The notes: generated by a model not told the origin, from the letters alone. Shown: positions 1,671 through 41,122, counted from the first letter of the stretch. The stretch: DNA of 64,000 nt from Candidatus Heimdallarchaeum aukensis (GCA_021513695.1 CP084166.1:544001-608000), one strand, 5' to 3'. A program made the numbers and translations.

Positions 1671-1729
1671 AACTGTATTTGTTTTTTTAATTAAATAAAG
1701 GTTATTGTTCCCAAATTTTCAATTTTGGC

Positions 1730-2242: not shown

Positions 2243-2259
2243 TTTAAGGAGATAAAAAA

Positions 2260-3960: not shown

Positions 3961-3961
3961 A

Positions 3962-5348: not shown

Positions 5349-5640
5349 ACATCTTTTTTCCTTTTCCTGTTTTTTCCCATTCACTAAACTTATCTATTAG
5401 TTCGTCAATAGCATGTGTTATCTCTTCAGTGATTTTTTCAACAATAATTAATTTGTCATCTTCAATTCGAATAGACAAAATAGAACCGAGTTCAACCAAC
5501 CATAATTCAAGTTCATTAAGATCTTCAAAACCTAATTTTTCCTGTAAAGTAATTAAAGGTATTTTAGAATTATTAGATAGGACTTTGAATAATTTTTAGC
5601 TCTTTCTATTTCAATATCGCGAGAATCAAAATAGTTCATT
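5349..5640 (-). pseudogene. Orphan 3' cassette that is a near-identical copy of the last ~95 codons of gene B (8618-8900). It encodes ...IPLITLQEKLGFEDLNELELWLVELGSILSIRIEDDKLIIVEKITEEITHAIDELIDKFSEWEKTGKGKKM* and has no start codon, with an upstream in-frame stop and a 1-nt deletion.
   Basis: Direct nucleotide comparison of 5341-5640 against 8621-8900 shows about 90-95% identity. The homology begins at the stop codon of gene A (gaagaaaaaatgaactattttgattctcg compared with gaagaaaaaataaactattttgattctcg in gene B). Confidence 0.65.
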
Positions 5641-16826: not shown

Positions 16827-16875
16827 AAATAATTTTCTCGCTTAATTATTTTTAAACTTTTAGTGATTAAAAATC

Positions 16876-17651
16876 GGTAGTGTCTAGTTTTCTTCCGACA
16901 AAAATATTTGTGGGGACTCTAATAGTACGATATGAACATTCAAAAACTATCTACTCTTTTTAAGAGATGCAGAGTCCCCAAAAAGATAATAATAAAAGCT
17001 ATTTATGAATATATTGGTTCAAAGAATGGTTTGAGGACATAGCATTGAAGAATGGTTTAACACACCAAACATTATGGTATTGGGTAAAGAAGTTCAGGCT
17101 CTTTAGGGAAAGTTTACATAGAATTGTAGCAGAGAGAGGGGAATACCTGAGATTATAGTAGTAGATGAAACAGAGATTAAGACCTCTCAAGGCTCAATGT
17201 ATCTGTGGTTCGCATTAGATCCTTCCTTACAACAAGACTTTACTGGGTTTTAGTATTACTAAGGGACGGAGTAATCTTGAATGTTTACTAACTTTCCGTT
17301 ATTGGTTCTGGTTCAAATGTTGGTATGGGGTTTTAAGCCTCGTATTGTCGTTACAGATGCAGGGGTATGGTATCCTGTCTTACTTCGTCTCGGTATCAAA
17401 ATCTCCGTTATCAAAGGTGGTTTACGCTCCTATATTGAACTTTTTAATGCCACCCTTAAGAGTTATCGTTGGTTTCATTCTATTCTCCACTGCACTTGTC
17501 CTATCCGTGCTGTCTATGGCTCTACTCATCTTTCTGGTTTCCTTACTCTCTTTATGTTCTATTATAATTTTATTCGTCCTCATCAGAGTTTAGGACATCC
17601 TCCCCTTAGTTCCTTTTTACCTAGGAGGCGGTATAAAAACTAGACACTACC
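16876..17651 (+). mobile_element. IS6-family insertion sequence, copy 1. It is degenerate, with 16-bp terminal inverted repeats GGTAGTGTCTAGTTTT / AAAACTAGACACTACC and a perfect 9-bp direct repeat TTAAAAATC on both flanks (16867-16875 and 17652-17660).
   Basis: Aligned by eye to the intact copy at 40093-40854 at roughly 90-95% identity, with small indels. The inverted repeats and target-site duplication are read directly from the sequence. Confidence 0.85.
16929..17643 (+). pseudogene. Frameshifted IS6-family transposase gene (fragments include the ORF at 17281-17643)
   Basis: Homologous to the 232-aa transposase at 40149-40847 but carries a stop codon (ggacatagcattgaag) and indels. Confidence 0.8.
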
Positions 17652-17712
17652 TTAAAAATCAACATTAATGCTTGTAAATAGAGAAAAAAAGAAAAAATAT
17701 GTAAGTCGTCAT

Positions 17713-18723: not shown

Positions 18724-19245
18724 CTATACAGTCCGAAGGAGTAAAAGGTAGTTGTAACAGAGGAGAGAACTATAAAGAGTAGAAAGAATGGTGGAGGGTA
18801 AGTGATCAAGGATTGGGGGAAGAGAGAGTTTGAGGAGACCAAAGACGTGTTCAATACTACTACGATACTCGGGGTGATGATTATGGCGATAGAGACCAGG
18901 GTAGAGACGATGAGCTTGAACTATTGATCCGAGAGGAGGAGAGGGATAACGAGCATTACTTTTTGGGGGAATAACAGGGAAAAAGGAATGTTGTCTAAGA
19001 AGACCGACGATATTTTCTGTCCAGTTGGCACAGTCTCCATAAAATCTCAAGAGCGGTCTCAAGAGTGCAGAAGGAAGTTTCTGCCATAGTAAACCGAAGA
19101 CTTTACTATCGTGAGTGTTACTAGCAGAATGAGCTAAAGAGATTATAGCTCTGGAGGGTAAACCAACTATAAGGTGTATCTTCCAGAAAAGTTTAGTTTG
19201 GAGGTTTTCTTTAGTCCTCCTCTTGCCCACTTGAGAAAACGCCAA
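18724..19245 (-). CDS. IS5-like transposase orfB (C-terminal DDE part). It is probably expressed by frameshifting or is a pseudogene.
   Basis: SIEHVFGLLK...RYE-like C-terminal motif. Confidence 0.6.
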   Translation of the reverse strand: MAFSQVGKRRTKENLQTKLFWKIHLIVGLPSRAIISLAHSASNTHDSKVFGLLWQKLPSALLRPLLRFYGDCANWTENIVGLLRQHSFFPVIPPKSNARYPSPPLGSIVQAHRLYPGLYRHNHHPEYRSSIEHVFGLLKLSLPPILDHLPSTILSTLYSSLLCYNYLLLLRTV

Positions 19246-22283: not shown

Positions 22284-22640
22284 TTAGAGAAAAATTCGAT
22301 CGTAGATCTTCTCCGTACAGTAGTTTATTATGTTGGAAAAAATGATAAAAAAAGGTGCTGAAGTACTGTTAGAGAGAGTATGTATTTGTTCCATACTAAT
22401 AATTTTAATATCCAATTTATGCTGTAGAGAGAGATTACGAAACGAATCTTTAATATCAGTGTATATACGATCCTGAGAAGCTTTTTTCGAAATAACTAAC
22501 AGGTCAATATCGCTGGTTTCAGAAAAAGTTCCACTAGCATAGGATCCTCCCAGCAAAACGGAAACGATTTTTGAGCGAGAAGGAAGTTTTTCAATTTGAT
22601 TAGTAATTATTTTGATAAGTTCATCTTGTAGCTTTGCCAT
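22284..22640 (-). CDS. Minimal nucleotidyltransferase (MNT, Pol-beta superfamily)
   Basis: LLGGSYASGTFSETSDIDLLVIS matches a GS...D.D motif. Confidence 0.7.
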   Translation of the reverse strand: MAKLQDELIKIITNQIEKLPSRSKIVSVLLGGSYASGTFSETSDIDLLVISKKASQDRIYTDIKDSFRNLSLQHKLDIKIISMEQIHTLSNSTSAPFFIIFSNIINYCTEKIYDRIFL

Positions 22641-24562: not shown

Positions 24563-25276
24563 ATGTTTCATGACTTTCAAGTTCAAGATGGTATTAACCT
24601 TTACAATTCCAATGGTTTTATTATAAAAAATAATACCATTTCCTATGGCGGGTATGGACTATTTGTATCTGAATCTTCACACGGGGTATATACTAATAAT
24701 ACTTGTATAGAAAATAGCAAATATGGTGTTTATATAAAATATGGATACAACATTTCTATCAATGAAAACAACTGCAGCGCTAATGATCAAGGTATAAATC
24801 TTTACAACTCTTCTACAATTTATATCCACAATAATAGCATAAGTAAAAACACTATTGGACTGACTTTTGATCTCTCTAATCATTCAATCATCACTTTTAA
24901 TTCATTTGAGAAGAATGAACAATATGCAATAATTATGGATTCTTCATCTTCTTCTAATCTCATCCATCATAATACGTTTATTGACAACAACTTGCAAGGA
25001 ACATCTCAAGCTTGTGATAATGGTCATAATAATACTTGGTATGACCAATCAACAAAAACTGGTAATTATTGGTCTGATAGAAAAGGGATAGGAAAATATT
25101 ACATAGATGGTAATAGTAAATCGTATGATAAATACCCCCTAAAAAATCTCCCTCAACAATGTGCTGAAAAAACTTCTATTGATTTTCTCATCATTCTGAT
25201 CTCTTTTCTCTCTACAGTTATTTTGTCTTATGTCATAAGAAACAAGTATGCATTCAGACAATTACGATTTAGATAG
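24563..25276 (+). pseudogene. 5'-truncated duplicate of the beta-helix surface protein gene at 32042-33466 (corresponding to its region ~32780-33466)
   Basis: About 93% nucleotide identity by direct comparison. The fragment begins mid-domain at ...DFQVQDGINLYNS and abuts the subtilase fragment on the opposite strand. Confidence 0.65.
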
Positions 25277-25279
25277 GTT

Positions 25280-25560
25280 TTATCCATCAGCTAATCCAAT
25301 CACTTCTCCTCTCTTAGTGAGATAAACATCAATTTCCGCTGCTTTTTTTGCTATAACATAGTCAATAGGTAGTATATCAAATCTAGATAAGTCCTGCTCA
25401 GCTTCCTCAAGTTTATTTGAAAATATAGCTGGCTTGTTACTATAAAGATAGTATATACCGCGTAAATATTCTTGGGCAGTAATCACAGATATGGCTTTAT
25501 AGCTTGGCCCCCTATCAATTTGCTTTGCTTTTTCTAAAGCATTTGGAACAGAGTTTGATA
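25280..25560 (-). pseudogene. Possible PIN-domain (VapC-like) fragment, truncated at its 3' end by the duplicated segment
   Basis: ...FDILPIDYVIAKKAAEIDVYLTKRGEVIGLADG* resembles the middle of a PIN domain. The ORF stops 4 nt from the junction. Confidence 0.3.
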
Positions 25561-25567
25561 CATATAT

Positions 25568-25840
25568 ATGATTAAGAATATGATTAAGATGGCGAAGAAT
25601 ATAGCAGTCTCTGATGAACTCTACAAATTGCTGAAACGGTTAAAACGTCCTGGTGAAAGTTTTACTGATGTGATTTTAAGATCAATAAAACATTCAACCT
25701 CTATAATGGATATTGCAGGTAAAAAAACAATACCCCTAGAAGAGTGGGAAAAACTCAAAAAATTATTTGAAGCGAAAGAAATAGAGGATTACAAGTGTAA
25801 AAGAGATTTGCTTGAGAAGGCTAATAATGTATCTTATTGA
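25568..25840 (+). CDS. Small antitoxin-like protein (archaeal VapB/CopG-like). The probable true start is the MAKNIA codon at 25589.
   Basis: MAKNIAVSDELYKLLKRLKRPGESFTDVILRSI is characteristic of small archaeal antitoxin-like proteins. Confidence 0.5.
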   Translation: MIKNMIKMAKNIAVSDELYKLLKRLKRPGESFTDVILRSIKHSTSIMDIAGKKTIPLEEWEKLKKLFEAKEIEDYKCKRDLLEKANNVSY

Positions 25841-25916
25841 CACAGATTTTATAATATATATTCATATGTATTATTAAAAATTTCCTAATCACATGCTCCA
25901 AAAAAAATAAAGAATG

Positions 25917-26981
25917 TTAATTATCATAGAATCGTAAATAGAAATAACTGCTAGGATCACCATCTTCAAGTACAGGAACAGAAGTGTAGGCATCAACATA
26001 ATCTTTTATTGTGTCAAAAACATTTTCTAAGTCAAGGTCAAAATTTATCCATTCACAACTGGAGCTATCCCAGTATTGTTTTATAAAATAACCTGTAAGA
26101 GCTCCATGGTAGTTGCTTCCATCCGGCATATAATTAAAGAATTTAGCTTGAGTAGTTTCATTGTATCTACACGCTGCAATCATAAGTACATTCTCTGAGG
26201 CTTGAATAGACATTATTTCATTCATTCCTCCAGAAAAGCATGAATCAATAAAAACAAGTAATTTTGATTCATAAGTCGTAGTTGAATCAGAACAAGCAAA
26301 TTTATCAAAAAGTATCTTTAAATTATAGTCATAAAGAAATTCATCTATTCCATAAGCTTGAACACTATGCTCTTCTTCATTATAACTATATCCATGCCCC
26401 GAGTAAATAAAGAATATTAAGTCATTTGGATCAGAATTTTCAACAACATTAGCTGTAACATCGTAAATATTTTGTAGTGTTGCTTGATGATAATCAAAGT
26501 TAAAGATACCACCTCCAGGACCTGATGTGTCAGGTAAATCAAAAAGACTTTCTCGATTTACAGATTCTTCGTGGCCAAGTAGGTGAACATTCATAGAAAA
26601 AGAAACAATATCATAAGTTTCTGGTTGTTGATCAAATAATTCAAAAAGAGCTGAAGCCCACATACACCATAAAATTGCATCTTCCCACGCACCAGCACAA
26701 TATTGTCCAGTTTGATCTTGACCAATACCGATAATAATAAACTCTGCCTTAATTTTATTGTCAGTGCCACTAGGATAGTCTATTACTGGAATAGTTGGTC
26801 CATTAACTCCTCCCCCATCACCGGTACCAGGATCAAGTTCAAAACCTTTTGTCAATAAGACTTCTTGAAAGAGTGTATTATTTATACTAGAACATAGTAA
26901 TGTCGATAAAATAAATAACGTAATAAAAATATTTTTATTAATTTTATTCACAGACCTATTAAAAAAATAACAACATCCCAT
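25917..26981 (-). CDS. Secreted caspase-fold cysteine peptidase (C14/C13-like)
   Basis: Signal peptide present. His-Gly dyad in FFIYSGHGY and catalytic Cys in VFIDSCFSGG. Confidence 0.6.
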   Translation of the reverse strand: MGCCYFFNRSVNKINKNIFITLFILSTLLCSSINNTLFQEVLLTKGFELDPGTGDGGGVNGPTIPVIDYPSGTDNKIKAEFIIIGIGQDQTGQYCAGAWEDAILWCMWASALFELFDQQPETYDIVSFSMNVHLLGHEESVNRESLFDLPDTSGPGGGIFNFDYHQATLQNIYDVTANVVENSDPNDLIFFIYSGHGYSYNEEEHSVQAYGIDEFLYDYNLKILFDKFACSDSTTTYESKLLVFIDSCFSGGMNEIMSIQASENVLMIAACRYNETTQAKFFNYMPDGSNYHGALTGYFIKQYWDSSSCEWINFDLDLENVFDTIKDYVDAYTSVPVLEDGDPSSYFYLRFYDN

Positions 26982-27042
26982 ATTTAAATATTTCGGATAA
27001 TAGGAAACAATATTTATTAATGTCTATAAAGCACATACCATA

Positions 27043-29805
27043 ATGTTGATAGTAAAACAGTATAGAACCAAAATAGTTTTTATTATTGTAGTCTATTCTT
27101 TATTTATTAGTTCAAGCGTTAATTTATCTCAAGAAAAGATATATGCCTATGAAGTTCAAAAAGATCATAATAATCTAAAAAAAATTGAACAGAATAGCAG
27201 TTTTTCTATTTATAATAGTTCTAAATACAGAGTATTATGGAAATTAACCATTCCATCACCATATTATGGAGATATTTCATTTATTGATTTAACAGATGAT
27301 AATAAACTAGATTTACTAATTGGAAAGCCTGATGAAGGATTATATGCTATAAATGGATTTAATGGTTCTATTATTTGGACAAAAAATTACTCTTCCAATA
27401 GTTGGTGGTTTCCTTATGTCAAGTGTTATGGAGCAAATTTTTTGGACATTGACTCTGATAATGAACTTGAGATCATTTTTAGTGTTGCTAATAATCGTAC
27501 TATTAATGCTTTAGAAAAAAATTCTACAGATATTTGGTCATATTATTGTAATGATGGTAATGGTAATACTGTTTTGGTTGATACAAACAATGATGGTTAT
27601 AAAGAACTTCTTTTTGGTTTTTCTGGAGGAATAAAAACTCTTTCTCCTTTTAACAGAACTGTTCTGTGGAGCTATGAAAACGATCTTCTTTCTTCTGGAG
27701 AATCATATCTGACTATAGCAGATTTAAACAACGATGGATTTGATGATGTAATTGATGCTTCATCTTTTGGTAATCTGATTGCAATTAATGGAAAAACACA
27801 TACACTTCTATGGGAAAGAACTTTACCTAAAAAAAATAAAGATAAAGAATTAAGACATCTTTCTAGGCCTGTTGCTGGAGATATGGACGGAGATGGTCAA
27901 TTAGAAGTGTTTGTAAGTGCAGGAAAAGAATATAAGAATATTTTTTTCACACTTGATGGAAAAACAGGAAAAACAATTTGGAAGGTTGAAGGAGAAAAAT
28001 TTAGTCGTGACACAGTTCTTGGAGATTTAAATGGAGATAATATTTTAGATATCGTTTCAACAACTACTGATGGTAAAATAATTGTGCTTGATGGTTTAAA
28101 AGGAAAAACTTTATGGACATTTCAATTTGGCAAATCATTGAACAATCCAGATAGCTATGGATTACCTCTTTCTTGCCCTGTTTTAGGTGACCTTAATAAT
28201 GATAACAGATTAGATGTTTTAATAGGCTCATGTGATGGTAAATATTATATCCTTGACGGATTAACAGGTAACCCTTTGTTTATTTTTGACAATCCTTCAA
28301 TATCTGAAGGACATAGAAAAACAGTAGATATTATTGATACAGGTGCTATCGTAGATTTAGACGGAGACGGAGAAAATGAAGTTGTTCTTGTCTGGACAGG
28401 TTTAGGTGTCTACGCTTACGATTTTGAGGAGGAATTAGCAGGAAAAAGAATTTTCTGGGGGACAAAGAGAGGAAATTCTTTGCAATGGGGAAATGCTTTA
28501 GCATTAGATCAAGATAATGACAGATTATCAGATTACAGTGAAAAATTATTTGGGACAGATAAAACGAATCCTGATACTGATGGAGATGGATTACCTGATG
28601 GTTATGAACTCAGTTACTTAAATACATCACCAACTCTATATGATACTGATAATAATGGAATTAGCGATGGTGAAGAAGACTTTGATGGTGACGGATTATT
28701 AAATGAACAAGAATTTAGACGCTTTACTGACCCATTTATATTTGATTCTGATTTTGATGGAATAAGAGATAAGCTTGACCTTTTTCCTTATTTAAATGAC
28801 TATATCGTTTATTCTAAAATTCTTGGAATTGTTTCTTTGTTTAGTTTTTCATTGTATAGTTACAAAAACTACAGGAAAAAAGGTTTAGTTTATCGAATTA
28901 TAAACTACGCTTACCTTAAAACAAAAAGGTTCCTTAAAAAATGTAAAAACTTTTTTAAAAAAACATCAGACGAAGTATTCTACTTTCTTCTCGTCAATAA
29001 AGGGTTAACAATAGCAAAAACCATTCTTGCCTTTATTCTTTCTAATATACTAATTATTCCTTTTTTCATTCCAGCTTGGAGAGAAAGAATGTATCTTAAG
29101 AATACTGAAGCACATATCACAATTTCTGATACAGGATTCCATAATATGGGATACATTGATCATTCGGGAGAATGTGTAGGAAAATACTGGCTTAGAACAG
29201 AAGATGGAGTATTCTATGCAATAAGTGGATATAAAGGAAACTTACCATACGGAGATTTCTATATTCGTGGTGAAGGATTTACTTATGATTCTGGAGATTT
29301 GGGGTTGAACTATCTTTTTGAAATGTCTCCTGAAGATGTGAAAGAAATAAAAGCAGCTCTTAGAAGACCTTGGTTATTGTTACTAGGATTAGTAGCTGTA
29401 AGCTTAGTGTTTTACTTAACATTCTACATTCTACAAAAGCTCATAAGCAAAATAACAGAACAGTCGTTTAAAGGAACACCATTTGAAGAGATGATTGCCA
29501 GTTTCCTCGAAGAAGTAAAGAAAATTACTTTTAGGAAACAGGAAAGTTTTGCAATGCAAGGATTATGGTTTGATCTAATAGAATACTACTGGGACAAAGG
29601 GTTAAGTAAATACGTCGACATTGATAAAAAACAATTAGTTCAGAGTAAAGGAGCACAAAAATATTTCATCAAAGACGATATTCAAGTTAAAGATGTTATT
29701 ATATACCTTGTTCTGTCTGATCCAGAAGCTCAAAAGACTAAGTTACCTATCATCATCAGGACCAATAGATTAAAAAAATCTAAACTGGAAAAAATAGATA
29801 ATTAA
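27043..29805 (+). CDS. Receptor-like membrane protein (920 aa). It has a signal anchor, FG-GAP/PQQ-like beta-propeller repeats (DLNNDGFDDV, GDMDGDGQLEV, GDLNGDNILD), TSP3-like Ca-binding repeats (DTDGDGLPDGYE...), TM helices, and a ~300-aa C-terminal region.
   Basis: Repeated DxDxDG FG-GAP signatures and TSP3-type repeats read from the translation. Confidence 0.7.
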   Translation: MLIVKQYRTKIVFIIVVYSLFISSSVNLSQEKIYAYEVQKDHNNLKKIEQNSSFSIYNSSKYRVLWKLTIPSPYYGDISFIDLTDDNKLDLLIGKPDEGLYAINGFNGSIIWTKNYSSNSWWFPYVKCYGANFLDIDSDNELEIIFSVANNRTINALEKNSTDIWSYYCNDGNGNTVLVDTNNDGYKELLFGFSGGIKTLSPFNRTVLWSYENDLLSSGESYLTIADLNNDGFDDVIDASSFGNLIAINGKTHTLLWERTLPKKNKDKELRHLSRPVAGDMDGDGQLEVFVSAGKEYKNIFFTLDGKTGKTIWKVEGEKFSRDTVLGDLNGDNILDIVSTTTDGKIIVLDGLKGKTLWTFQFGKSLNNPDSYGLPLSCPVLGDLNNDNRLDVLIGSCDGKYYILDGLTGNPLFIFDNPSISEGHRKTVDIIDTGAIVDLDGDGENEVVLVWTGLGVYAYDFEEELAGKRIFWGTKRGNSLQWGNALALDQDNDRLSDYSEKLFGTDKTNPDTDGDGLPDGYELSYLNTSPTLYDTDNNGISDGEEDFDGDGLLNEQEFRRFTDPFIFDSDFDGIRDKLDLFPYLNDYIVYSKILGIVSLFSFSLYSYKNYRKKGLVYRIINYAYLKTKRFLKKCKNFFKKTSDEVFYFLLVNKGLTIAKTILAFILSNILIIPFFIPAWRERMYLKNTEAHITISDTGFHNMGYIDHSGECVGKYWLRTEDGVFYAISGYKGNLPYGDFYIRGEGFTYDSGDLGLNYLFEMSPEDVKEIKAALRRPWLLLLGLVAVSLVFYLTFYILQKLISKITEQSFKGTPFEEMIASFLEEVKKITFRKQESFAMQGLWFDLIEYYWDKGLSKYVDIDKKQLVQSKGAQKYFIKDDIQVKDVIIYLVLSDPEAQKTKLPIIIRTNRLKKSKLEKIDN

Positions 29806-29816
29806 TAAAGCATTTT

Positions 29817-30299
29817 TTATTTTGTTCGTAGTAATCTTGAAAGATGATAACCACAGCTTACAGGTAGTATTGGATGCTTTTTTCCGCTGATTGATATTGA
29901 AATATTTTTTATTATTTTTATTTCAGAATAATGACGCCAACCTTTACTTAAAACAAGAGGGTAGTATGATTTCTTAATATTTTTTGAACAATATTCTTCA
30001 ACTATAGTTTTTACTACTTTTGAACCATTTTCTAGTTTTTCAATGACTTCTTTAGCTTTTGCACTTTTGTTTTTCAATTCAGCAATTATAATATACAAAC
30101 AATGATTAGTCTCAACAATAATAATACAATCTGATGATTTTTCCTTAATTAACGAGTCCCCATCTAATATTATATATTCTTTATCAATATCAATTTTTAG
30201 TTCACAGTTTCTTTCATAACATTTCTTTCTTGAATAGTCCGAATAAAATTGGCTAACAGTTTGAAAAAAAGTCATAGAAAATCCCATTGAAATAATCAT
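29817..30299 (-). CDS. Hypothetical protein with a possible PD-(D/E)xK nuclease-like core
   Basis: SDCIIIVETN ... YIIIAELK is compatible with D...ExK spacing. No other support. Confidence 0.3.
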   Translation of the reverse strand: MIISMGFSMTFFQTVSQFYSDYSRKKCYERNCELKIDIDKEYIILDGDSLIKEKSSDCIIIVETNHCLYIIIAELKNKSAKAKEVIEKLENGSKVVKTIVEEYCSKNIKKSYYPLVLSKGWRHYSEIKIIKNISISISGKKHPILPVSCGYHLSRLLRTK

Positions 30300-30967
30300 T
30301 CTAGTTCTTTTTTTAGTTTAAAAATTTCTTCATGGTATCTCTTTTCCTTTTCTTACTGATATTAATAGAGTTATTATAAGCTATAAACAAAACTGTTATA
30401 ATAAAAGATTATTAGAAATTATAAAATTAATGTGAGTACAAAGTTGTTTTCATTATCAAAACATACTCGAAAAACGCTTAAATTTGACACCTATTACAAT
30501 TATTAAAACAATACCAAAAAATGAGATTGTCCCAATCACATACGAAGGATACATTTATTCCCATATAGAATGACTGCTTTCCCCATAGATCCAATTTTAA
30601 ACACTACTTTTATTATCGTTTAAACTTGGGATATTCTGATTCTAGTGCATATTCTTATGCAAGATATAAAGCATAGTACTAACATAAAGACCAAATTTCT
30701 CTGAAAAATGATTAATGCAAATATATTTGGTTGCTATATTAGTAAAATAACAATACCACAAAGATGTTTTTTAATTAAAGATTGAAGAAACAGGTAGAGT
30801 ACAATGAATCTTGTACTAAATAAGGTCAAATTAACACCTGTTATTCATCCTTTACAAAAAGGACAATCCTGTTCGTTAACAAATCTATAACTATATGTCA
30901 AAAATGATATATAGATGTTTAAAATAATGAATATTTGATAGAAAAGTATGTATTTTGTTGATAAAAA

Positions 30968-32026
30968 ATGAGCAATAATAAACATACTACAATCGCATTA
31001 ATAATAGTCATATTGTCATTAGCTCTTGTTTTTATTAAACCAACAGGAGCTGGTTGGGTAGAATGGGAAGGGAAAGTGTATAATGAATGGAATAATGGAG
31101 TAAGTGGAGCAATAGTAAAACTAAAACAGAATAATGTTGTTGTTAAAACAACAACCACAGATAGTAATGGGGAATATTCTCTCATATACTATACTTCTAG
31201 CTATGCTACATACAAAATTACAGTGACTAAGGAGGATTATAATAGTCAAACAAAGACTGTTCCCAAGACTTCCCTTGGAGAACCCTGGGTTGTAGATTTT
31301 AATATTCGCTATGTTATGAAATATGCTGTGATCGTGGGAATAGAAGATTATGCTTATCTTAATGATTTACAGTATACAGAAAATGATGCAGATGCTTGGT
31401 ACGACTTCTTATGTGATACATCTTTAGATTTCGATGAAGTGGATCTATATAAAGGTAGTAATGCATATGAATCCGCCATCAAAAACGCTTTAGAAAATAT
31501 GGTAAATATAGCTGATAAAGGTGACATTATTGCATTTATTTTCTCAGGGCATGGTTATAAAAAAAGTAGTACTGAACATGCCCTTTCTATGTGGGATGCT
31601 GATGGTAATGGTAACACAGGTTACTTATATGATTCAGAACTAGCAACTATTTTAACTAGTTCAGAAGCTGAAAGAATATTTCTATTTTTTGACTGTTGTT
31701 ACAGCTATGGAATGCAAGAGGAGTTGGCAGAGATAGGAAGCAAAGATCATATCCTTCTTACTAGTTCTTGTGATAAAAATGAAATTTCCTATTATGACAA
31801 AGCAAATGAAAAGAGTTGTTGGACGCAAAGTTTTTTAGTAGAATCATGGATTAATAATAATGAGCCAGAAGATCCTGTAATAGATGTTTTCAACGATGCA
31901 ATAATTTATTTCAGAGCCCATATAACTAATGGAGATGATTATTACTCAACGGATCAGAATCCGCAATTGTGGAACCCTTATGGAAACAATTTTCGATTAA
32001 CTAAGTATGGAATCTCACCACCATAA
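30968..32026 (+). CDS. Secreted caspase-fold peptidase with an N-terminal carboxypeptidase-regulatory-like (transthyretin-like) domain
   Basis: VKTTTTDSNGEYSL motif. His-Gly in IFSGHGY and Cys in LFFDCCYSYG. Confidence 0.6.
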   Translation: MSNNKHTTIALIIVILSLALVFIKPTGAGWVEWEGKVYNEWNNGVSGAIVKLKQNNVVVKTTTTDSNGEYSLIYYTSSYATYKITVTKEDYNSQTKTVPKTSLGEPWVVDFNIRYVMKYAVIVGIEDYAYLNDLQYTENDADAWYDFLCDTSLDFDEVDLYKGSNAYESAIKNALENMVNIADKGDIIAFIFSGHGYKKSSTEHALSMWDADGNGNTGYLYDSELATILTSSEAERIFLFFDCCYSYGMQEELAEIGSKDHILLTSSCDKNEISYYDKANEKSCWTQSFLVESWINNNEPEDPVIDVFNDAIIYFRAHITNGDDYYSTDQNPQLWNPYGNNFRLTKYGISPP

Positions 32027-32041
32027 GGAGAGAAAAAAAGT

Positions 32042-33466
32042 ATGAAACTAAATAAAAAAGTGTTGACTATAATATTGTGCACAATCATCTTACTGTTAGT
32101 AGGTACTTCAAATACAACTAGAGCAGTTCATCAAGAAAAGAACAGATTCGCACATACATTACACACCAATATTAGTTTAATCACTCCAATTAATATCACC
32201 TCTGATGAAGATTTCTCTAAGTATGCATATGATGGTTCAGGAAGAGAAGAGGATCCATATATAATTGAGGGATATGAAATAACAGGGCAGGATGTTACAG
32301 GGATATACATAGCGAATACTACGAAATATTTCATCATACGTGACTGTGTTATTGAAGGTACTAGTCAAGGAATTCATATTGTAAATGTGTCGGATGGGAC
32401 AGCATTAATCACAAATAATATTTGTAAAAATATAGTAAACCAAGGTATAATCGTTGAAAACACTAATTATGCGATATTACATAACAATACTTGTAGTGAA
32501 TCTAATATGTATGGCATCCATAGCCGATTCTCAGATTACCTTATATTGGAACAGAATACTTGTAATAAAAACGGAATGTGTGGAATTTTTGTAGATTACT
32601 CAACTTCGACTGTGATTAGGAAGAATATTGTTATTGATAATGTGCTCTCAGGTATTATTGTACAAGATACAGTAAAAACTCTCATCTCCCAGAATTATTG
32701 TTTTGATAATGATGGCATGGGTGGAATAGTGCTCTCAAGATCTCTAAATGCGACAATTATAAACAATATTTGTGTTGATGACTTTCAAGTTCAAGATGGT
32801 ATTAATCTTTACAATTCAGATGGTTTTATTATAAAAAATAATACCATTTCCTATGGCAGGTATGGAATATTTGTATCTGAATCTTCACACGGGGTATATA
32901 CTAATAATACTTGTATAGAAAATAGCAAATATGCTGTTTATATAAAATATGGATACAACATTTCTATCAATGAAAACAACTGCAGCGCTAATGAGCAAGG
33001 AATAAATCTTTACAACTCTTCAACAATTTATATCCACAATAATAGTATAAGTAAAAACACTATTGGACTGACTTTTGATCTCACGAATCATTCAATCATC
33101 ACTTTTAATTCATTTGAGGAGAATGAACAATATGCAATAATTATAGATTCTTCATCTTCTTCTAATCTCATCCACCATAATACGTTTGTTGACAACAACT
33201 TGCAAGGAACATCTCAAGCTTGTGACAATGGCAATAATAATACCTGGTATGACCAATCGACAAAAACTGGTAATTATTGGTCTGATAAAAAAGGAGGAAA
33301 ATATTACATAGATGGTAGTAGTAAATCGTATGATAAATATCCCCTAAAAAATCCCCCTCAACAATTTGCTGAAAAAACTTCTATTGATTTTTTCATCATT
33401 CTTATATCTTTTCTCTCTTCTACAGTTATTATGTCTTATGTCAAAAGAAACAAGTATGCTTTATGA
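32042..33466 (+). CDS. Beta-helix (PbH1/NosD-like) repeat surface protein with a C-terminal TM anchor (474 aa). It is a paralog of the beta-helix domain of receptor genes A and B.
   Basis: Repeated right-handed beta-helix units (...NNxCxxN..GI.L...). GTSQACDNG...GNYWSD cap and C-terminal hydrophobic helix. Confidence 0.7.
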   Translation: MKLNKKVLTIILCTIILLLVGTSNTTRAVHQEKNRFAHTLHTNISLITPINITSDEDFSKYAYDGSGREEDPYIIEGYEITGQDVTGIYIANTTKYFIIRDCVIEGTSQGIHIVNVSDGTALITNNICKNIVNQGIIVENTNYAILHNNTCSESNMYGIHSRFSDYLILEQNTCNKNGMCGIFVDYSTSTVIRKNIVIDNVLSGIIVQDTVKTLISQNYCFDNDGMGGIVLSRSLNATIINNICVDDFQVQDGINLYNSDGFIIKNNTISYGRYGIFVSESSHGVYTNNTCIENSKYAVYIKYGYNISINENNCSANEQGINLYNSSTIYIHNNSISKNTIGLTFDLTNHSIITFNSFEENEQYAIIIDSSSSSNLIHHNTFVDNNLQGTSQACDNGNNNTWYDQSTKTGNYWSDKKGGKYYIDGSSKSYDKYPLKNPPQQFAEKTSIDFFIILISFLSSTVIMSYVKRNKYAL

Positions 33467-33727
33467 CAATTATGAGTGATTCGAATGTTAAGGTTATTAC
33501 CCAGATGTTAAATTCTAGTTAAGCTAGTTATTCAGCTAGTGCAGCTGCTTTAGGAAGCATTAAATCTTTGTTTATTGTTCTTCTTTTAGTTTTCTACTTT
33601 GGCTTAAAGTTTAAATATTCTATATGAATGAAAAAAATCAATTTTACTCTTGTAGGACTTGCAATCATTTTATCTGGATGCGATTAAGAATTTTTTAATA
33701 ATACATATGAATGTATATGTGATTAAG

Positions 33728-33937
33728 ATGGCTAAGAATATAGCAATCTCTGATGAACTCTACAAATTGCTGAAACGTTTAAAACGCCCTGGTGAAAGTT
33801 TTACTGATGTGATTTTAAGATCAATAAAACATTCTACCTCTATAATGGATATTACAGGTAAAAAAACAATACCCCTAGAAGAATGGGAAAAACTCAAGAA
33901 ATTATTTGAAATGAAAGAAATAGAGTTACAAGCGTAA
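33728..33937 (+). pseudogene. Second, 3'-truncated copy of the antitoxin-like gene (duplicate of 25589-25840)
   Basis: About 95% nucleotide identity. A deletion gives a premature stop (…KEIELQA*). Confidence 0.45.
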
Positions 33938-34166
33938 AAGAGATTTGCTTGAGCAGACGATAAAAGATTTCAATTGGTTTATTATTAGCAATAATAACAA
34001 ATCCAATCGGAAATGAATCTGAAATTCCATTGGGAAAAAATTTTTCTTTAATAGAGACACCTATTTTTATTTTTGTTTTTGGACTTTTTTCAATTCTAAT
34101 TTATTTTCAGTAAAACAAAAATTATGTGGAACTGTTGCAAAATTAACATTGACATCAAAAGAATTA

Positions 34167-36116: not shown

Positions 36117-39100
36117 TTACACCGCTGTTGCCCACTCTTCACCAAACAACTGTGCTTGCTCCATTATTAATTTAATCGCATTAGGAGTTTGATCTGGTGG
36201 ATATTTATACTTTCGCAATAGTTTACGAATCTCAATACGCATGCGAGCTTGAACACTTTTTCTTACTGTGAAATCAATTGTAGCAGAATTTCGAACCTTA
36301 GCAACTAACTCTTTTGCTATTTTCTTTAATGTTTCATCACCCATTTCTCTTACAGCACTTTCATTTGTAGCTAAAGCATCATAAAAAGCAACTTCATCAT
36401 CATTTAATCCAAGTTCTTCTCCCTTTTTGAAAGCTTTTTGCATATCTTTCGCTAATTGAATCAATTCCTCTAAAATTGCAGCAGAAGCTATTGTACGATT
36501 GATATATTTGTTAATAGATTTCTGAAGTAATTCCTCAAAAGAACGAGATTGAACTAAATTCTTTTTAGCTCTAGAACGAATTTGATCCTTCAACAATTTA
36601 TTTAAAACCTCAACAGCTAAATTCTTTTGTTTTAATCCTCTAACTTCTTCAAGAAATTTATCAGAAAGAATAGAAATTTCTGGTTTATCCAATCCTGCTG
36701 CAGAAAAAATGTCTATAACATCTTCTGAAATAACAGCTCTAGAGATTAATTGTCTAATTGCATAATCAACTCTTTCTTTACGTTCTTTGGAAGGAGTAGT
36801 AGCTTTTACAAAACCAGCACGTACAGCTTGGAAAAAAGCTAAATCATCTCGAATAGCTAAAGCTTCTTCATGAGGAATAGCAAGAGAAAAGGCTTTATTT
36901 AGTGCTGAAAGGTTATCTAAAAACCTTTTTTTAGCACTTTCTGGAGTTTCATTAGGTAAATTAAGAATATGTTCCATAGCAGCAGGAAGTAATTGTAATC
37001 TTTGTAAAGCACTTCCTGTTTTAAACAAAGAATAATCAAAATTGTAAAACATATCTGAAACAATTTCATAATATGTTTTCATTAATTCTACAGCTTTTTC
37101 TTGAGGAATAGCTGTTTGTTCTCTTGACTCTACATTAGAATACCTAGATAATGCTTGCTTAAGAAAATAACCTATACCAATATAATCGACAATAAGACCT
37201 CCAGGTTTATCTTTATATACTCTATTTACTCTAGCTATCGCTTGCATTAAATTGTGTCCTTGCATTGGCTTATCTACATACATTGTATGCATACTAGGCA
37301 CATTAAAACCTGTTAACCACATATCTCTTACAATAACAAGTTTAAGTTCGTCCTCAGGATCTTTCATTCGATTTTCAATAATTTTTCTTTTTCTTTTAGG
37401 CCTAATGTGTGAACGCAATAATTGATCATCAGCAGCAGAACCGCTAATTACAACTTTAATGAAACCTTTTTGATCATCATTAGAATGCCACTCAGGCCTT
37501 AGTTTTATTATTTCATTATACAATAAAGCACAAATCCTGCGAGACATACAAACAATCATACCCTTTCCATCTATAATCTCAAGTCTTTTTTCAAAATGAT
37601 TTACAATATCCTCAGCTACTTCACGTAACCTATCGGGATCAGAAACAAGCCTTTCGACTCTTGACCACTTAGATTTCAATTTTTCTCGAGCATATTCTTC
37701 TTCATCTTCTGTGATTTCATCAAATTCTTCATCGATTTGACCCTTCAATTCTTCATTAAACTTAATTTTAACTAACCTTGATTCATAATAAATAGGAACA
37801 GTAGTTTTATCTCTTATTGCTTGTGAAATATCATAAATGCTAATATAATTACCAAAAACATGAATCGTATTTCTGTCGACAAGTTCTACAGGAGTAGCAG
37901 TAAAAGCAATAAAAGAAGCATTAGGCAGAGCTTGACGAATATAAGCAGCAAAACCTTCTTTTAATGAACCTTTTTCAGAAAGTTTTTTTCCAAAAGAATA
38001 ATGACTTCTATGAGCCTCATCAGCAATAACAATGATATTCCTCCTCTCAGATAAAAGAGGATATTGTGCATTCTCTTCAGGAAGAAATTTTTGTATTGTA
38101 GTGAAAATTACACCACCACCGGTTGTTTTAAGCAAATCCTCAATATTATCTTTTGTCGCTTCATGATTTTTTGGATTGTACCTCCTTGCTGTGGCTTGAA
38201 TAGAAGTTTGACGAAGAAGATCCCTTGATAAAGTAAAAGTTGTAAAAAGTTGGTCATCTAAATCGTTTCTATCAGTAATAACAACGACAGTAGGATTGTT
38301 AAGTAGCTGGATTAACTTTGCGGTATAAAATAACATTGTAAGACTCTTACCAGAACCTTGAGTATGCCAAACAACACCAATCTTTTGATCACCATCACTT
38401 CCAGTAGCTCGTAAAGTTTCCTTAATAGCACGATTAACAGCATGATATTGATGATAAGCAGCAGATTTCTTGACTATTGTTCTACCATCGTCTTCAAAAG
38501 TAATAAAAAATCTGATGTAATCTAAAAAACGAGAAGGTTCTAAAATACCACGAAATAAAACTTCAAGAGATAAGATTGATTGGTCAGCTAATATCTCTCC
38601 CTCAATAGTGCGCCAGGGAGTAAAACGCTCCCAATTAGCAGATAAACTGCCAGCTTTAGATTCATAACCATCACTAATAACAATTAACTCATTAGTCCTA
38701 AATAAAGAAGGAATTTCTTTTTTATAAGTCTGAATTTGATTATAAGCATCTCTTGTAGTCGTTTCTTCTTTAGATGGGTTCTTAAGCTCAATAACTACTA
38801 AAGGAATACCATTAACAAAGAGAACAATATCAGGTCGGTGATTGTGTTTGTCAGAACCAACACCTTCTATAACAGTAAATTGATTTACAGCTAAAAAATC
38901 ATTATTCTCAGGATTCTCAAAATCAATAACTCGTACTATATCTCCCTTTACACGACCATCATGGTAATAAGAGACTTCTACACCATCAACTAACATTCTA
39001 TGAAAAGAACGATTGTTTGTTAATAAATCAGGAGAATCAATACGGTTGAGTTTCTGCAAAACATCTTCAAGCACTTCTTTAGGTTTATCAGGATTAAGTT

Positions 39101-39272
39101 TATGTAAAGCTGATTTTAGTCTATCTTTAAGAATAATCTCACTATATGATAACCTTTCAGGATTATTTCCTGTTGGTGCAATATCTGGACCAAACTTGGT
39201 ATCATAACCTAATTCTCTTAAAATTTCCATAGATGCTTCTTCTAACTCTTTTTCAGTTATTTTCATAATCAA
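36117..39272 (-). CDS. hsdR: Type I restriction enzyme R subunit (HsdR)
   Basis: 1051 aa. Superfamily-2 helicase motifs are present (GSGKS-type Walker A in WHTQGSGKSLT, DEAH-type IVIADEAHRS). The C-terminal domain is typical of HsdR. Confidence 0.9.
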   Translation of the reverse strand: MIMKITEKELEEASMEILRELGYDTKFGPDIAPTGNNPERLSYSEIILKDRLKSALHKLNPDKPKEVLEDVLQKLNRIDSPDLLTNNRSFHRMLVDGVEVSYYHDGRVKGDIVRVIDFENPENNDFLAVNQFTVIEGVGSDKHNHRPDIVLFVNGIPLVVIELKNPSKEETTTRDAYNQIQTYKKEIPSLFRTNELIVISDGYESKAGSLSANWERFTPWRTIEGEILADQSILSLEVLFRGILEPSRFLDYIRFFITFEDDGRTIVKKSAAYHQYHAVNRAIKETLRATGSDGDQKIGVVWHTQGSGKSLTMLFYTAKLIQLLNNPTVVVITDRNDLDDQLFTTFTLSRDLLRQTSIQATARRYNPKNHEATKDNIEDLLKTTGGGVIFTTIQKFLPEENAQYPLLSERRNIIVIADEAHRSHYSFGKKLSEKGSLKEGFAAYIRQALPNASFIAFTATPVELVDRNTIHVFGNYISIYDISQAIRDKTTVPIYYESRLVKIKFNEELKGQIDEEFDEITEDEEEYAREKLKSKWSRVERLVSDPDRLREVAEDIVNHFEKRLEIIDGKGMIVCMSRRICALLYNEIIKLRPEWHSNDDQKGFIKVVISGSAADDQLLRSHIRPKRKRKIIENRMKDPEDELKLVIVRDMWLTGFNVPSMHTMYVDKPMQGHNLMQAIARVNRVYKDKPGGLIVDYIGIGYFLKQALSRYSNVESREQTAIPQEKAVELMKTYYEIVSDMFYNFDYSLFKTGSALQRLQLLPAAMEHILNLPNETPESAKKRFLDNLSALNKAFSLAIPHEEALAIRDDLAFFQAVRAGFVKATTPSKERKERVDYAIRQLISRAVISEDVIDIFSAAGLDKPEISILSDKFLEEVRGLKQKNLAVEVLNKLLKDQIRSRAKKNLVQSRSFEELLQKSINKYINRTIASAAILEELIQLAKDMQKAFKKGEELGLNDDEVAFYDALATNESAVREMGDETLKKIAKELVAKVRNSATIDFTVRKSVQARMRIEIRKLLRKYKYPPDQTPNAIKLIMEQAQLFGEEWATAV

Positions 39273-40092
39273 TTTCCGCCAAAAATTTTTCTATATTAGT
39301 AATTCGAAGCCTACCTGAGATAAGTTGAGGAAGTAGAATATCTCTTAATTTAATTAAAATATTAATTTCATCCTTATTTTTTCTAATTTTTTCAAAGATT
39401 GGGTCAATTATTTCTCTAAACTTTAGTAAAGTAGTCTTATCAGGTTTTATAATCGGAATCCTAAAAAGGTTACTTTGATTAATTTTTAATTGTACTGCAC
39501 CAGTTATATAAGGTCTAATGTTTATATTCATGAGATGTAACATAACAAATTCTGTACAAAATTCATTTTTTCCTTGTATTACATGAACATGATTATTCGC
39601 CCAAAATTTTCCATGTACATATTGTAAGATGGGTTTTTCATTGTTATCAATAACTGAACCATCTTCTGCCATTAAGAGAAAAATGCCATCAAAAATGTAA
39701 TCATCAATATAGTCTAAAATACTAGCTGCCCCATAATATGGATAAATACCTTTTCTTACCTTTCTTTCTATTTTTGATAAAGGAATTCTTTTTGAATCAT
39801 ATATACTTATGACTTCTTTGAGCGTCCCAACTTCCCATCCTTTTGGTATTTCTTTATCTACTTCCTCATTATATTCAAATTCGCCATCTTTGAAAGGTTC
39901 AAAATCAATAAACCAAGATCTGAAGATAGTTTGGGCTATCTCTTCTAAAACTTTGTTCATCTTCTGATTGAGTTCAATTTTTTGATCTATAGAGCTTAAT
40001 AATTTACTAATAAATTTTTGTATTCTTAAATTAGGTATAGGAAGTGGGATATTTTCAATAATTGAGGTATTTAAGGAAGGTCTAGTAGTACC
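39253..40092 (-). pseudogene. hsdS: Type I restriction-modification specificity subunit (HsdS), truncated at its 5' end by IS6 insertion. Only the central conserved region, the second target-recognition domain and the C-terminal conserved region remain.
   Basis: The annotated ORF (39253-39960) starts MNKVLEEIAQTIFRSWFIDFEP, which is the HsdS central conserved region. The frame remains open upstream (…ENIPLPIPNLRIQKFISKLLSSIDQKIELNQK) up to the IS right end at 40093. The 235 aa are about half the normal HsdS length. Confidence 0.75.
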
Positions 40093-40854
40093 GGTAGTGT
40101 CTAGTTTTCTTCCGACAAAAATATTTGTGGGGACTCTAATAGTAAGATATGAACATTCAAAAACTATCTACTCTTTTTAAGAGATGCAGAGTCCCCAAAA
40201 AAATAATAATAAAAGCTATTTATGAATATATTGGTTCAAAGAATGGGTTGAGGACAGTAGCATGGAAGAATGGTTTAACGCATCAAACATTATGGTATTG
40301 GGTAAAGAAGTTCAGGCTCTTTAGGGAAAGTTTACATAGAGTTGTAGCAGAGAGAGGGGGAATACCAGAGATTATAGTAGTAGATGAAACAGAGATTAGG
40401 ACCTCTCAAGGCTCAATATATCTGTGGTTCGCGTTAGATCCTTACAACAAGACTTTACTGGGTTTTAGTATTACTAAAGGACGGAGTAATCTTGAATGTT
40501 TACTAACTTTCCGTTATTGGCTCAAATGTTGGGGTTTTAAGCCTCGTATTGTCGTTACAGATGCAGGAGTATGGTATCCTGTCTTACTTCGTCTAGGTAT
40601 CAAAATCTCCGTTATCAAAGGTGGTTTACGCTCCTATATTGAACGTTTTAATGCTACTCTTAAGAGTTATCGTTGGTTTCATTCTATTCTCCACTGCACT
40701 TGTCCTATCCGTGCCGTCTATGGCTCTACTCATCTTTCTGGTTTTCTTACTCTCTTTATGCTCTATTATAATTTCGTTCGTCCTCATCAGAGCTTAGGAC
40801 ATCCTCCCCTTAGTTCCTTTTTACCTAGGAGGTGGTATAAAAACTAGACACTAC
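40093..40854 (+). mobile_element. IS6-family insertion sequence, copy 2 (intact). It has 16-bp terminal inverted repeats GGTAGTGTCTAGTTTT / AAAACTAGACACTACC and no flanking direct repeat.
   Basis: Inverted repeats read directly. The flanks (ctagtagtacc and agtcaaaaatag) differ from each other. Confidence 0.85.
40149..40847 (+). CDS. IS6-family DDE transposase (232 aa)
   Basis: VVDETEI...RIVVTDAGVWY...SYIERFNATLKSYR fits the IS6 D-D-E pattern. Confidence 0.85.
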   Translation: MNIQKLSTLFKRCRVPKKIIIKAIYEYIGSKNGLRTVAWKNGLTHQTLWYWVKKFRLFRESLHRVVAERGGIPEIIVVDETEIRTSQGSIYLWFALDPYNKTLLGFSITKGRSNLECLLTFRYWLKCWGFKPRIVVTDAGVWYPVLLRLGIKISVIKGGLRSYIERFNATLKSYRWFHSILHCTCPIRAVYGSTHLSGFLTLFMLYYNFVRPHQSLGHPPLSSFLPRRWYKN

Positions 40855-41122
40855 CAGTCAAAAATAGAAAAAAAATATAAAAGGCTTTTCTAAATAACAA
40901 CATTAGTTAAAGTATGTGGATTCTTACTAACAACCTTTGAATATAATTCATTTTTTATTTTTTGAATTATCTTCGCTCTATATTCCTCTTCTTTTTTGAA
41001 TCTAAATTAAACAATATAATTTTGTTCAACAGATAATTTTATATTGGGTTATAACCCATTACCGCCCAGAAGTCTAAAAAATAAAATAAGAGGCGATAAA
41101 AATAGGATATGGATCAGGAAGA

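Follow-up and report, generated by a model that had tools for sequence, protein, structure and literature searches.

Two exported caspase homologue/surface protein pairs lie side by side in a variable island of Candidatus Heimdallarchaeum aukensis

Heimdallarchaeota are the Asgard group closest to eukaryotes. From one of them, the Asgard archaeon Candidatus Heimdallarchaeum aukensis, we analysed a stretch of 64,000 nt (GCA_021513695.1 CP084166.1:544001-608000; in the following, the window), which has a G+C content of about 30%. Its interval 25917-33466 contains five open reading frames (ORFs; Table 1). Two of them encode caspase homologues (C354 and C352), two encode predicted surface proteins (FG920 and BH474), and the fifth encodes a protein called S160 here. 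An earlier note on this DNA had described the interval as a single cluster of eukaryote-like adhesion or sensing modules. Our analysis leads to a different picture. Very probably, the interval consists of two independent two-gene cell-surface cassettes, C354 with FG920 (pair A) and C352 with BH474 (pair B), which lie side by side only in this strain, in an island rich in insertion sequences (IS) and defence genes. The ORF limits are exactly those of the earlier note, and its domain calls were correct, with Pfam matches for C354, FG920, C352 and BH474. S160 lies inside the interval and is absent from its description.

The gene order of pair B, peptidase then beta-helix protein, was present in all 11 other Heimdallarchaeota loci found (L008, L010, L012, L016, L017, L018, L019 twice, L020, L021 and L025). 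For nine loci, stop-to-stop ORF limits give gaps of -74 to +73 bp between the two genes; a further locus, L025, has a gap of 25 bp. Where neighbours were listed, the flanking genes are unrelated between loci. The bacterial relatives examined do not have this arrangement. Among 10 distinct pairs, identities amount to 34-59% for the peptidases and 31-57% for their partners. The two identity matrices correlate with a Mantel r of 0.79, a value reached by one of 5000 permutations, in a comparison that includes three paralogous pairs of one metagenome-assembled genome. Because the matrices correlate with the paralogous pairs included, the members of pair B diverge as units. In L017 the peptidase gene of the pair (5890-7005) contains an in-frame TGA at about 6352-6354 that interrupts it; the gene could have decayed to a pseudogene, or the codon could stem from a sequencing error or be recoded.

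Pair A has a head-to-head arrangement, which recurs in three of the three Heimdallarchaeum lineages found with 57-61% identity and in a different setting each time. In the H. endolithica-like genomes (L001, L004-L006, L024) the pair is located between the glycine-cleavage operon and RtcB, and in a third species (L002/L003) between the gene of a major facilitator superfamily transporter and an EamA gene. The spacers between the divergent genes measure 67-86 bp in L001, L005 and L002; the corresponding spacer of the window presumably carries the promoters of both genes. A metagenome scan for further pair A loci yielded only one additional H. endolithica-like copy. In L001 and L005, IS-end-like sequence was seen downstream of the FG-GAP gene. 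The recurrence of pairs A and B exceeds a chance arrangement. The functional tie between caspase-fold peptidases and neighbouring surface proteins proposed in the earlier note gains support: each peptidase is kept beside one specific partner, and pair B co-diverges.

The juxtaposition of the two pairs is not conserved. The strain-variant contig L007 is 99% identical to the window over 26013-30333 only, and the identity stops at 30333. To the right of S160 L007 has an AAA_15/AAA_21 ATPase gene and a gene for a leucine-rich repeat protein, whereas the window has C352 and BH474 there. As this 99% identical contig is without pair B at that position, the juxtaposition is strain-specific, the result of a recent rearrangement within a variable island. 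The five-gene arrangement is not kept either in the few other Heimdallarchaeia genomes examined. In addition, the arms of a recent direct repeat, about 1.3 kb in length, lie on either side of the region (24567-25267 and 32775-33475 with 94% identity, 25554-25819 and 33694-33956 with 91% identity). In the left arm, the ORF 24563-25276 is a 5'-truncated fragment 91% identical to aa 247-474 of BH474. Each arm has a VapB-like antitoxin gene (25568-25840, with a VAPB_antitox match of 8e-12, and 33659-33937), and neither of these genes has an adjoining VapC. A 41-nt inverted repeat (25854-25894 and 33678-33718) lies beside the duplication arms. Thus the claim of a single cluster does not hold; what is conserved are the two pairs.

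S160 was considered as a member of a cassette and rejected, since it pairs with an ATPase that this strain has lost. It has no Pfam match and matches PDC-M47B of PADLOC with 6.5e-5. In L007 the ATPase gene (1574-3618) overlaps the S160 homologue by 4 nt, and its product matches PD-T4-4_A (1.7e-44) and PDC-M47A (1.3e-31). This A-subunit ATPase adjoins S160 in L007 only and is missing from the window. Because the matching partner is present in L007 and missing here, S160 is the orphaned B subunit of a PD-T4-4/PDC-M47-like two-gene candidate defence system.

As the earlier note had stated, the 920-aa protein is bracketed by two divergent caspase-fold peptidases. Peptidase_C14 of Pfam matches C354 with 5e-10 (39.8 bits) and C352 with 3e-15 (57.1 bits), with a cut-off of 21.4 bits. 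C354 also passes the threshold of Peptidase_C13 (2.5e-7; 30.9 bits, cut-off 22.8), with a weaker score than for C14; C352 has no Pfam match to Peptidase_C13. The carboxypeptidase-regulatory-like domain which had been assigned to one of the peptidases is found in C352 (CarboxypepD_reg, 1e-8). According to hydropathy, C354, FG920, C352 and BH474 all have N-terminal hydrophobic signals, in agreement with the earlier proposal that the peptidases are secreted.

C352 begins with a cleavable-looking signal peptide (cleavage between …PTGA and GWVEWEG), followed by the beta-sandwich of CarboxypepD_reg (aa ~29-112) and the C14 caspase-fold domain. Throughout its family a conserved small-residue site (VSA or TGA) immediately precedes the conserved mature start WVEWEG, and the family is without a membrane anchor of its own. 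The catalytic residues are His195 and Cys244, the S1 aspartates Asp140 and Asp242. In 17 aligned sequences of the family the catalytic Cys with its flanking Gly and Asp, Asp140 (in NDA) and Asp242 are invariant, and the His is nearly so. A profile of the family matches Yca1 (4e-13) and TbMCA2 (7e-8), and also AtMC4 and AtMC9, with the motifs CxND/NDA, SGHG and DSC aligned. The AlphaFold2 model of C352, with a mean predicted local distance difference test score (pLDDT) of 89, has the caspase-hemoglobinase fold. The best Foldseek match of this model is the MALT1 paracaspase (6.5e-11), followed by GSU0716, AtMC9 and Yca1 with values down to 4e-7; legumain ranks lower. After the catalytic Cys, the part relevant to whether a p10 domain is present (metacaspase) or absent (orthocaspase), the model has a strand (262-266), helices (284-321) and a further strand (333-335).

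For C354 the caspase fold is assigned from sequence. Its catalytic residues His196 (YSGHG) and Cys248 (DSCFSGG) were found by alignment to Arabidopsis metacaspase-4 (6w8s), which places YSGHG on YSGHG and DSCFSGG on DSCHSGG; Cys248 aligns with the residue mutated in the C139A entry 6w8r. Asp101 and Asp246 were assigned to the S1-pocket positions by motif. A region of about 125 aa precedes the recognisable C14 core. In C354 and its orthologues the N-terminal hydrophobic region ends with a Cys, which may mark a lipoprotein-type signal. Among 5.8e9 proteins, homologues of C354 form only two clusters, both from Heimdallarchaeum.

Both peptidases are of the metacaspase/orthocaspase type (C14). Since both S1 aspartates are kept in C354 and C352, cleavage after Arg or Lys is predicted for both; in TbMC2 the S1-pocket residues Asp95 and Asp211 accommodate a basic P1 (PMC6426788). 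In two pair B peptidases, one from L010 (6001-7110, P0065) and one from L019 (L019a, 520-1635), the catalytic His is replaced by Lys (SGKG). Both of these variants still adjoin a beta-helix partner, which argues for a binding relationship rather than for substrate cleavage alone. In a survey of 2019, no pseudo-orthocaspases were reported in Archaea, and archaeal caspase homologues were rare, with 93 of 11,208 prokaryotic p20 sequences (PMC6426788).

With prokaryotic orthocaspases and type I metacaspases (MEROPS C14B; Yca1, T. brucei MCA2, Arabidopsis MC4 and MC9, Geobacter GSU0716) the two peptidases have in common the caspase-hemoglobinase fold (as modelled for C352), the dyad of the SGHG His and the DxC Cys, and both S1 aspartates. 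Accessory immunoglobulin (Ig)-like N-terminal domains are also known in archaeal orthocaspases (PMC6426788). In contrast to the C14B enzymes, which stay cytosolic, C354 and C352 are predicted to be exported via their N-terminal signals, and each is fixed beside a specific anchored surface protein. Further differences are that C354 is very divergent and found in one genus, and that one subclade of pair B has exchanged the His for Lys.

FG920, the partner of C354, consists of a signal or anchor (aa 11-29), a beta-propeller (aa ~60-475), five repeats of the thrombospondin type 3 (TSP3) kind (aa 489-579) and a C-terminal module. Pfam matches were obtained above the cut-off for FG-GAP_3 (9e-14, 52.3 bits) and FG-GAP (32.3 bits), and PQQ_2 matches with 1e-10. 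In the AlphaFold2 model, which was built on an alignment of 45 sequences, residues 60-580 have a pLDDT >90. The model shows 32 strands and a closing strand, and hence the propeller is assigned eight blades. A motif scan detected a Dx[DN]x[DN][GN]xx[DE] loop in eight of eight blades. The best Foldseek match of the propeller was BamB (4e-18), followed by Bap1 (7e-16), YxaL and PQQ dehydrogenases; no integrins were present among the 50 matches listed.

The earlier note had called this propeller integrin-alpha-like. The FG-GAP calcium loops it referred to are present, and FG920 indeed shares with integrin alpha the FG-GAP-type repeats, DxDxDGxxD-like calcium loops and a membrane-anchored ectodomain. 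However, integrin alpha has seven blades, thigh and calf domains, a single transmembrane (TM) helix and a beta subunit, whereas FG920 has eight blades and three TM helices. Pfam detected no thigh, calf, I or other integrin domains in FG920, and no beta-subunit-like gene was found among its neighbours. An integrin-like classification was therefore rejected on the grounds of blade number and structural neighbours. BamB, YxaL and Vibrio cholerae Bap1 have the fold and blade number of FG920 (Foldseek 4e-18 to 7e-16). Bap1 is likewise an extracellular propeller protein, with a role as a biofilm-matrix adhesin according to the description of its PDB entry. Yet these three proteins have only 13-18% identity to FG920, which differs by calcium loops in all eight blades, the TSP3 stalk, and the three-TM module with a predicted cytoplasmic tail. 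The setting of BamB also differs, as the archaeal host has no outer membrane and no BAM (beta-barrel assembly machinery) complex.

The repeats of FG920 were recognised as five DxDx[DN]Gxx[DN]xxE motifs in a region that is modelled with a pLDDT >90. With 18.1 bits, TSP3_bac (PF18884) remains under its Pfam cut-off of 25 bits, and eukaryotic TSP_3 (PF02412) gave no Pfam match to FG920. The repeat region is 43% identical (BLAST, E = 6e-15) to the TSP3 array of a paralogue in the window, BH899 (5636-8335), which scores 73 bits for TSP3_bac. The myxobacterial surface proteins CglD, MtsC and MtsD and other TSP3_bac proteins also have DxDxDGxxDxxE arrays as an extracellular stalk. With CglD, MtsC and MtsD, however, the match is confined to the repeats, the NCBIfam scores are far below cut-off and the surrounding domains are different. 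Judging from their motifs, the repeats and blade loops of FG920 would depend on calcium.

In the C-terminal module of FG920, three internal hydrophobic helices are found (TM1 ~587-607, TM2 ~658-680, TM3 ~776-797). The membrane segment that the earlier note had described is thus present, not as a single TM helix but as three. The loop after TM1 (608-657) is basic with 14 Lys and Arg in 50 residues. The loop after TM2 (681-775) comprises 95 aa and is net acidic and beta-rich, and the tail (798-920) is a basic, helical stretch of 123 residues. From the positive-inside rule, we predict that the ectodomain is outside, loop 608-657 inside, loop 681-775 outside and the tail inside. The module has no Pfam match and no sequence match in the PDB. 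An exhaustive HMMER search of 1.84e9 representative proteins gave only two hits: one is a fragment from the module's own family, and in the other the outer loop weakly matches (5e-4) a repeat in a bacterial protein of the type IX secretion system (T9SS). This segment, aa 705-753 (window 29155-29300), resembles a unit that is repeated eight times in the 1594-aa bacterial protein P0060; the resemblance is weak (33-39% identity over 49 aa). P0060 carries a CHU_C/T9SS sorting domain, which fits an extracellular beta-rich minidomain for the outer loop of FG920.

With the H. endolithica-like orthologue the module shares 73-77% identity, compared with 57% for the propeller. As it has nearly no relatives and yet exceeds the propeller in conservation, it is a conserved domain restricted to the genus, neither a linker nor an artefact. 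The earlier note had left room for the C-terminal region being just that; three internal helices, charges in line with the positive-inside rule and above-propeller conservation indicate that it is real. The label of a receptor is not supported: its sole basis is topology, and Pfam, PDB and HMMER comparisons gave no recognisable output domain in the tail. The earlier note had further placed FG920 together with a family of proteins encoded at 5-14 kb of the window, with large cytoplasmic tails as a common trait. The FG920 tail is unrelated to the coiled-coil tails of that family, and a tail shared between them was rejected, as they have the TSP3 repeats alone in common. BH474 has a tail of 10 residues.

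BH474, the partner of C352, has a signal peptide, a beta-helix, a D.YPL..PP motif, a C-terminal TM anchor (446-464) and a basic tail. This design (signal peptide, beta-helix, D.YPL..PP, TM anchor and short basic tail) is common to the aligned partners (n=10). BH474 matches NosD with 8e-38 (130.5 bits) and Beta_helix with 3e-37 (128 bits) in Pfam. It also matches the TIGR03804 repeats, and reaches 103 bits for TIGR04247, under the cut-off of 300 bits. No nos genes (NosZ/F/Y/L operon) were found among its neighbours, so that a NosD function is not indicated. The beta-helix paralogue mentioned in the earlier note was identified: the beta-helix parts of the proteins encoded at 5-12 kb are paralogous to BH474.

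Table 1. Location of the two pairs, S160 and the flanking duplication in the window
Feature	Position	Strand	Description
Duplication left arm	24567-25819	+	5'-truncated beta-helix gene copy and VapB-like gene
C354, pair A peptidase	25917-26981	-	354 aa; divergent C14 caspase homologue, N-terminal hydrophobic export signal
Pair A intergenic spacer	26982-27042		61 bp between divergently transcribed C354 and FG920
FG920, pair A surface protein	27043-29805	+	920 aa; signal/anchor, propeller, TSP3-type repeats, C-terminal module
FG920 orphan C-terminal module	28801-29802	+	aa 587-920; predicted from hydropathy and charge counts
S160	29817-30299	-	160 aa; orphaned B subunit, PD-T4-4/PDC-M47-like
C352, pair B peptidase	30968-32026	+	352 aa; signal peptide, CarboxypepD_reg, C14 domain
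BH474, pair B surface protein	32042-33466	+	474 aa; signal peptide, NosD/CASH-type right-handed beta-helix, TM anchor
Duplication right arm	32775-33956	+	BH474 3' half and second VapB-like gene

Each cassette comprises an exported C14 peptidase with a catalytic dyad and an acidic S1 pocket and the cognate membrane-anchored surface protein of repeat fold. The most likely interpretation of the conserved pairing is that, once exported, each peptidase is retained on the outside of the membrane through its own partner. The partner could serve as a dock, as a specificity subunit or as the first substrate, in the latter case for maturation or shedding of its ectodomain, and the pair would act as one surface unit in adhesion or envelope remodelling. 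We propose docking because the C352 family is without an anchor of its own and because the His-to-Lys variants keep their partners. As the C352 family has no anchor, a membrane partner would explain how C352 is retained on the cell. The mechanism of docking or processing with the own partner is tentative, and we would put it at somewhat less than an even chance. Taken jointly with the two-cassette anatomy, it is the account that we consider moderately probable.

Several observations weigh against this account. Adjacency and co-divergence are also expected from plain co-inheritance of an operon whose products do not interact physically. The assessment of signal-peptide cleavage and topology is based on hydropathy and charge alone, and AlphaFold2 predicts helices for the C-terminal module of FG920 with low pLDDT. 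Pair A is based on three closely related lineages of one genus, and L026, a more distant Heimdall FG-GAP/TSP3 protein, has no caspase neighbour; its upstream gene does not encode a caspase. Moreover, pair A shows decay in several places. In L007 an IS (7413-7936 of the contig) is inserted in the 3' end of the C354 gene, at about position 26013 of the window. In the third species the peptidase is frameshifted by a 1-nt deletion outside a homopolymer, which was found in two samples (L002 ~6885 and L003 ~2914). In H. endolithica (CP084167.1, L005 ~7560) the FG920 orthologue is split at a T5-to-T6 homopolymer just before TM3, which could be an assembly error. Because of the IS in L007, the frameshift in L002/L003 and the possible T5/T6 frameshift, pair A may be dispensable. 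In the third species, the propeller protein beside the frameshifted peptidase ends after a single TM helix and is without the three-TM module; this could be a co-loss of module and peptidase and would then speak for the pairing, if only in a single case.

The alternative of a single functional cluster of eukaryote-like adhesion or sensing modules spanning the whole interval, with FG920 as a calcium-dependent signalling receptor and peptidases that process their neighbours, is quite unlikely in our assessment. It has in its favour that the claimed domains are present, that the module of FG920 appears membrane-embedded and conserved with a tail of ~120 aa predicted to be cytoplasmic, and that each peptidase is linked to the neighbouring surface protein. 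Against it, the five genes are not conserved together: L007 has other genes on the right side of S160, the interval lies between recent duplication arms, and pair A of H. endolithica stands alone among housekeeping genes. Neither the tail nor the loop of FG920 has a match among known signalling domains, the tail has no relation to the tails of the family at 5-14 kb, and the propeller is eight-bladed and BamB/Bap1-like, with TSP3 repeats of the bacterial type. Unlikely as well, if slightly less so, is a set of secreted degradative feeding enzymes in which beta-helix and calcium propeller would bind or cleave glycans and the peptidases would digest extracellular glycoprotein. NosD/CASH beta-helices and eight-bladed calcium propellers do occur in polysaccharide lyases and hydrolases, FG920 matches Beta-prop_CGLA of Pfam, BH474 weakly matches AlgG of NCBIfam, and hydropathy indicates export of all four proteins. 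Carbohydrate-active enzymes are often found together with CarboxypepD_reg-like sandwiches. However, catalytic residues of lyase or hydrolase families were not identified, and the partners are membrane-anchored by prediction and not released. The strict one-to-one co-divergence of paralogous pairs is unexpected for general digestive enzymes, the pseudo-protease variants keep their partner, and C14 peptidases process their substrates with narrow specificity and are not bulk proteases (PMC6426788).

The defence genes around the interval raise the question whether the caspase homologues are antiviral or cell-suicide effectors in the style of gasdermin proteases or EACC1 caspases, with the surface proteins as sensors or decoys. 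The island contains type I restriction-modification genes, VapB-like genes, an MNT-type nucleotidyltransferase, IS copies and the PD-T4-4-like remnant; the peptidases have PADLOC 'caspase' matches (2e-9 and 3e-14) and sub-threshold matches to caspase_w_EACC1 of NCBIfam; and defence genes show similar decay and variability between strains. Yet the export signals assign the peptidases an extracellular location, their neighbours include no NTPase sensor, gasdermin or EACC1 partner, and in other species the pairs are located among housekeeping genes. Furthermore, the matches in PADLOC and NCBIfam are confined to the generic caspase core, with 58 and 16 bits for caspase_w_EACC1 at a cut-off of 140. 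We therefore consider a role in defence very unlikely.

Gingipains, legumain and Gpi8, a subunit of the GPI (glycosylphosphatidylinositol) transamidase, are clan CD enzymes of caspase fold whose substrates are secretory or surface proteins outside the cytoplasm. By analogy, the exported caspase homologues could be dedicated processing enzymes of their partner surface proteins. This might happen by cleavage or transpeptidation of the juxtamembrane part or C-terminal anchor of the partner, as an archaeal functional counterpart of maturation of the legumain/Gpi8 type. Alternatively, in pair A, proteolysis of the ectodomain or outer loop might gate a three-TM receptor and thereby alter the state of the conserved cytoplasmic tail. 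Such a dedicated role stays compatible with the data, since enzymes and partner stalks would share one side of the membrane, the partners are matched one-to-one and co-diverge, and C354 passes the C13 threshold. The resemblance to the C13 enzymes is limited, as C354 scores more strongly for C14 and legumain is a weaker structural match to C352 than MALT1 and the metacaspases. Gingipains have an Ig-like sandwich, as C352 does. T9SS and GPI machinery are absent, and there was no sign of transpeptidation. By either route, we regard this as highly improbable.

The remaining genes of the window give the surroundings the look of a defence island, with restriction-modification, VapB-like and MNT-type genes and IS. 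Two IS copies (16875-17659 and 40092-40865) are 94% identical. Further IS are found at 15062-16000 and 18724-19245, with types including an rve transposase and a DDE_Tnp_1 fragment. The restriction-modification genes (36117-39960) encode a type I HsdR of 1051 aa followed by a short HsdS-like ORF, and a gene for an rve-type transposase lies about 190 bp further. The MNT-type nucleotidyltransferase (NTP_transf_2) is encoded at 22284-22640. There are no tRNA genes in the window that could serve as integration sites.

The proteins of the 5-14 kb family (5636-8335, 8618-11875 and 12045-13541) have a beta-helix, many TSP3 repeats, one TM helix and a coiled-coil tail of 290-470 aa. At the C-terminus all three share a conserved domain of about 75 aa (…FSEWE[RK][KT]GKGKK[KE]) that has no Pfam match. 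The 498-aa member, which is without signal peptide and most of the beta-helix, has the appearance of a truncated paralogue. Gene conversion is suggested by 93% identity between the segments 5352-5648 and 8622-8920. Upstream of the family, 3890-5284 encodes a radical SAM/SPASM protein with a PqqD-like domain, an enzyme of the peptide-maturation type; this gene is preceded by a 566-aa ORF without a Pfam match.

The component families of the two cassettes are all known: C14B peptidases, propellers of the FG-GAP/PQQ type, bacterial-type TSP3 repeats and NosD/CASH beta-helices. The existing NCBI names are 'caspase family protein' and 'FG-GAP-like repeat-containing protein'. In the literature on Asgard orthocaspases, metacaspases and FG-GAP proteins and in the genome paper we found no description of pair A or pair B. 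As far as we found, new are the conserved, co-diverging pairing of caspase homologues with surface proteins in Heimdallarchaeota, the orphan three-TM module and the archaeal pseudo-variants.

These results correct the view of the interval as a eukaryote-like adhesion cluster. With a propeller near BamB and Bap1, bacterial TSP3 repeats and peptidases of the metacaspase/orthocaspase type, the modules are bacterial-type and lend no support to a specifically eukaryote-like origin, and their clustering is the product of a recent rearrangement. What takes the place of this view are exported and, judging from their sequences, apparently active metacaspase-like peptidases that in Heimdallarchaeota are fixed beside specific anchored surface proteins and, in the case of pair B, co-diverge with them. 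Partner-docked extracellular proteolysis would thus be a testable hypothesis for the function of archaeal caspase homologues and for the construction of the Asgard cell surface.

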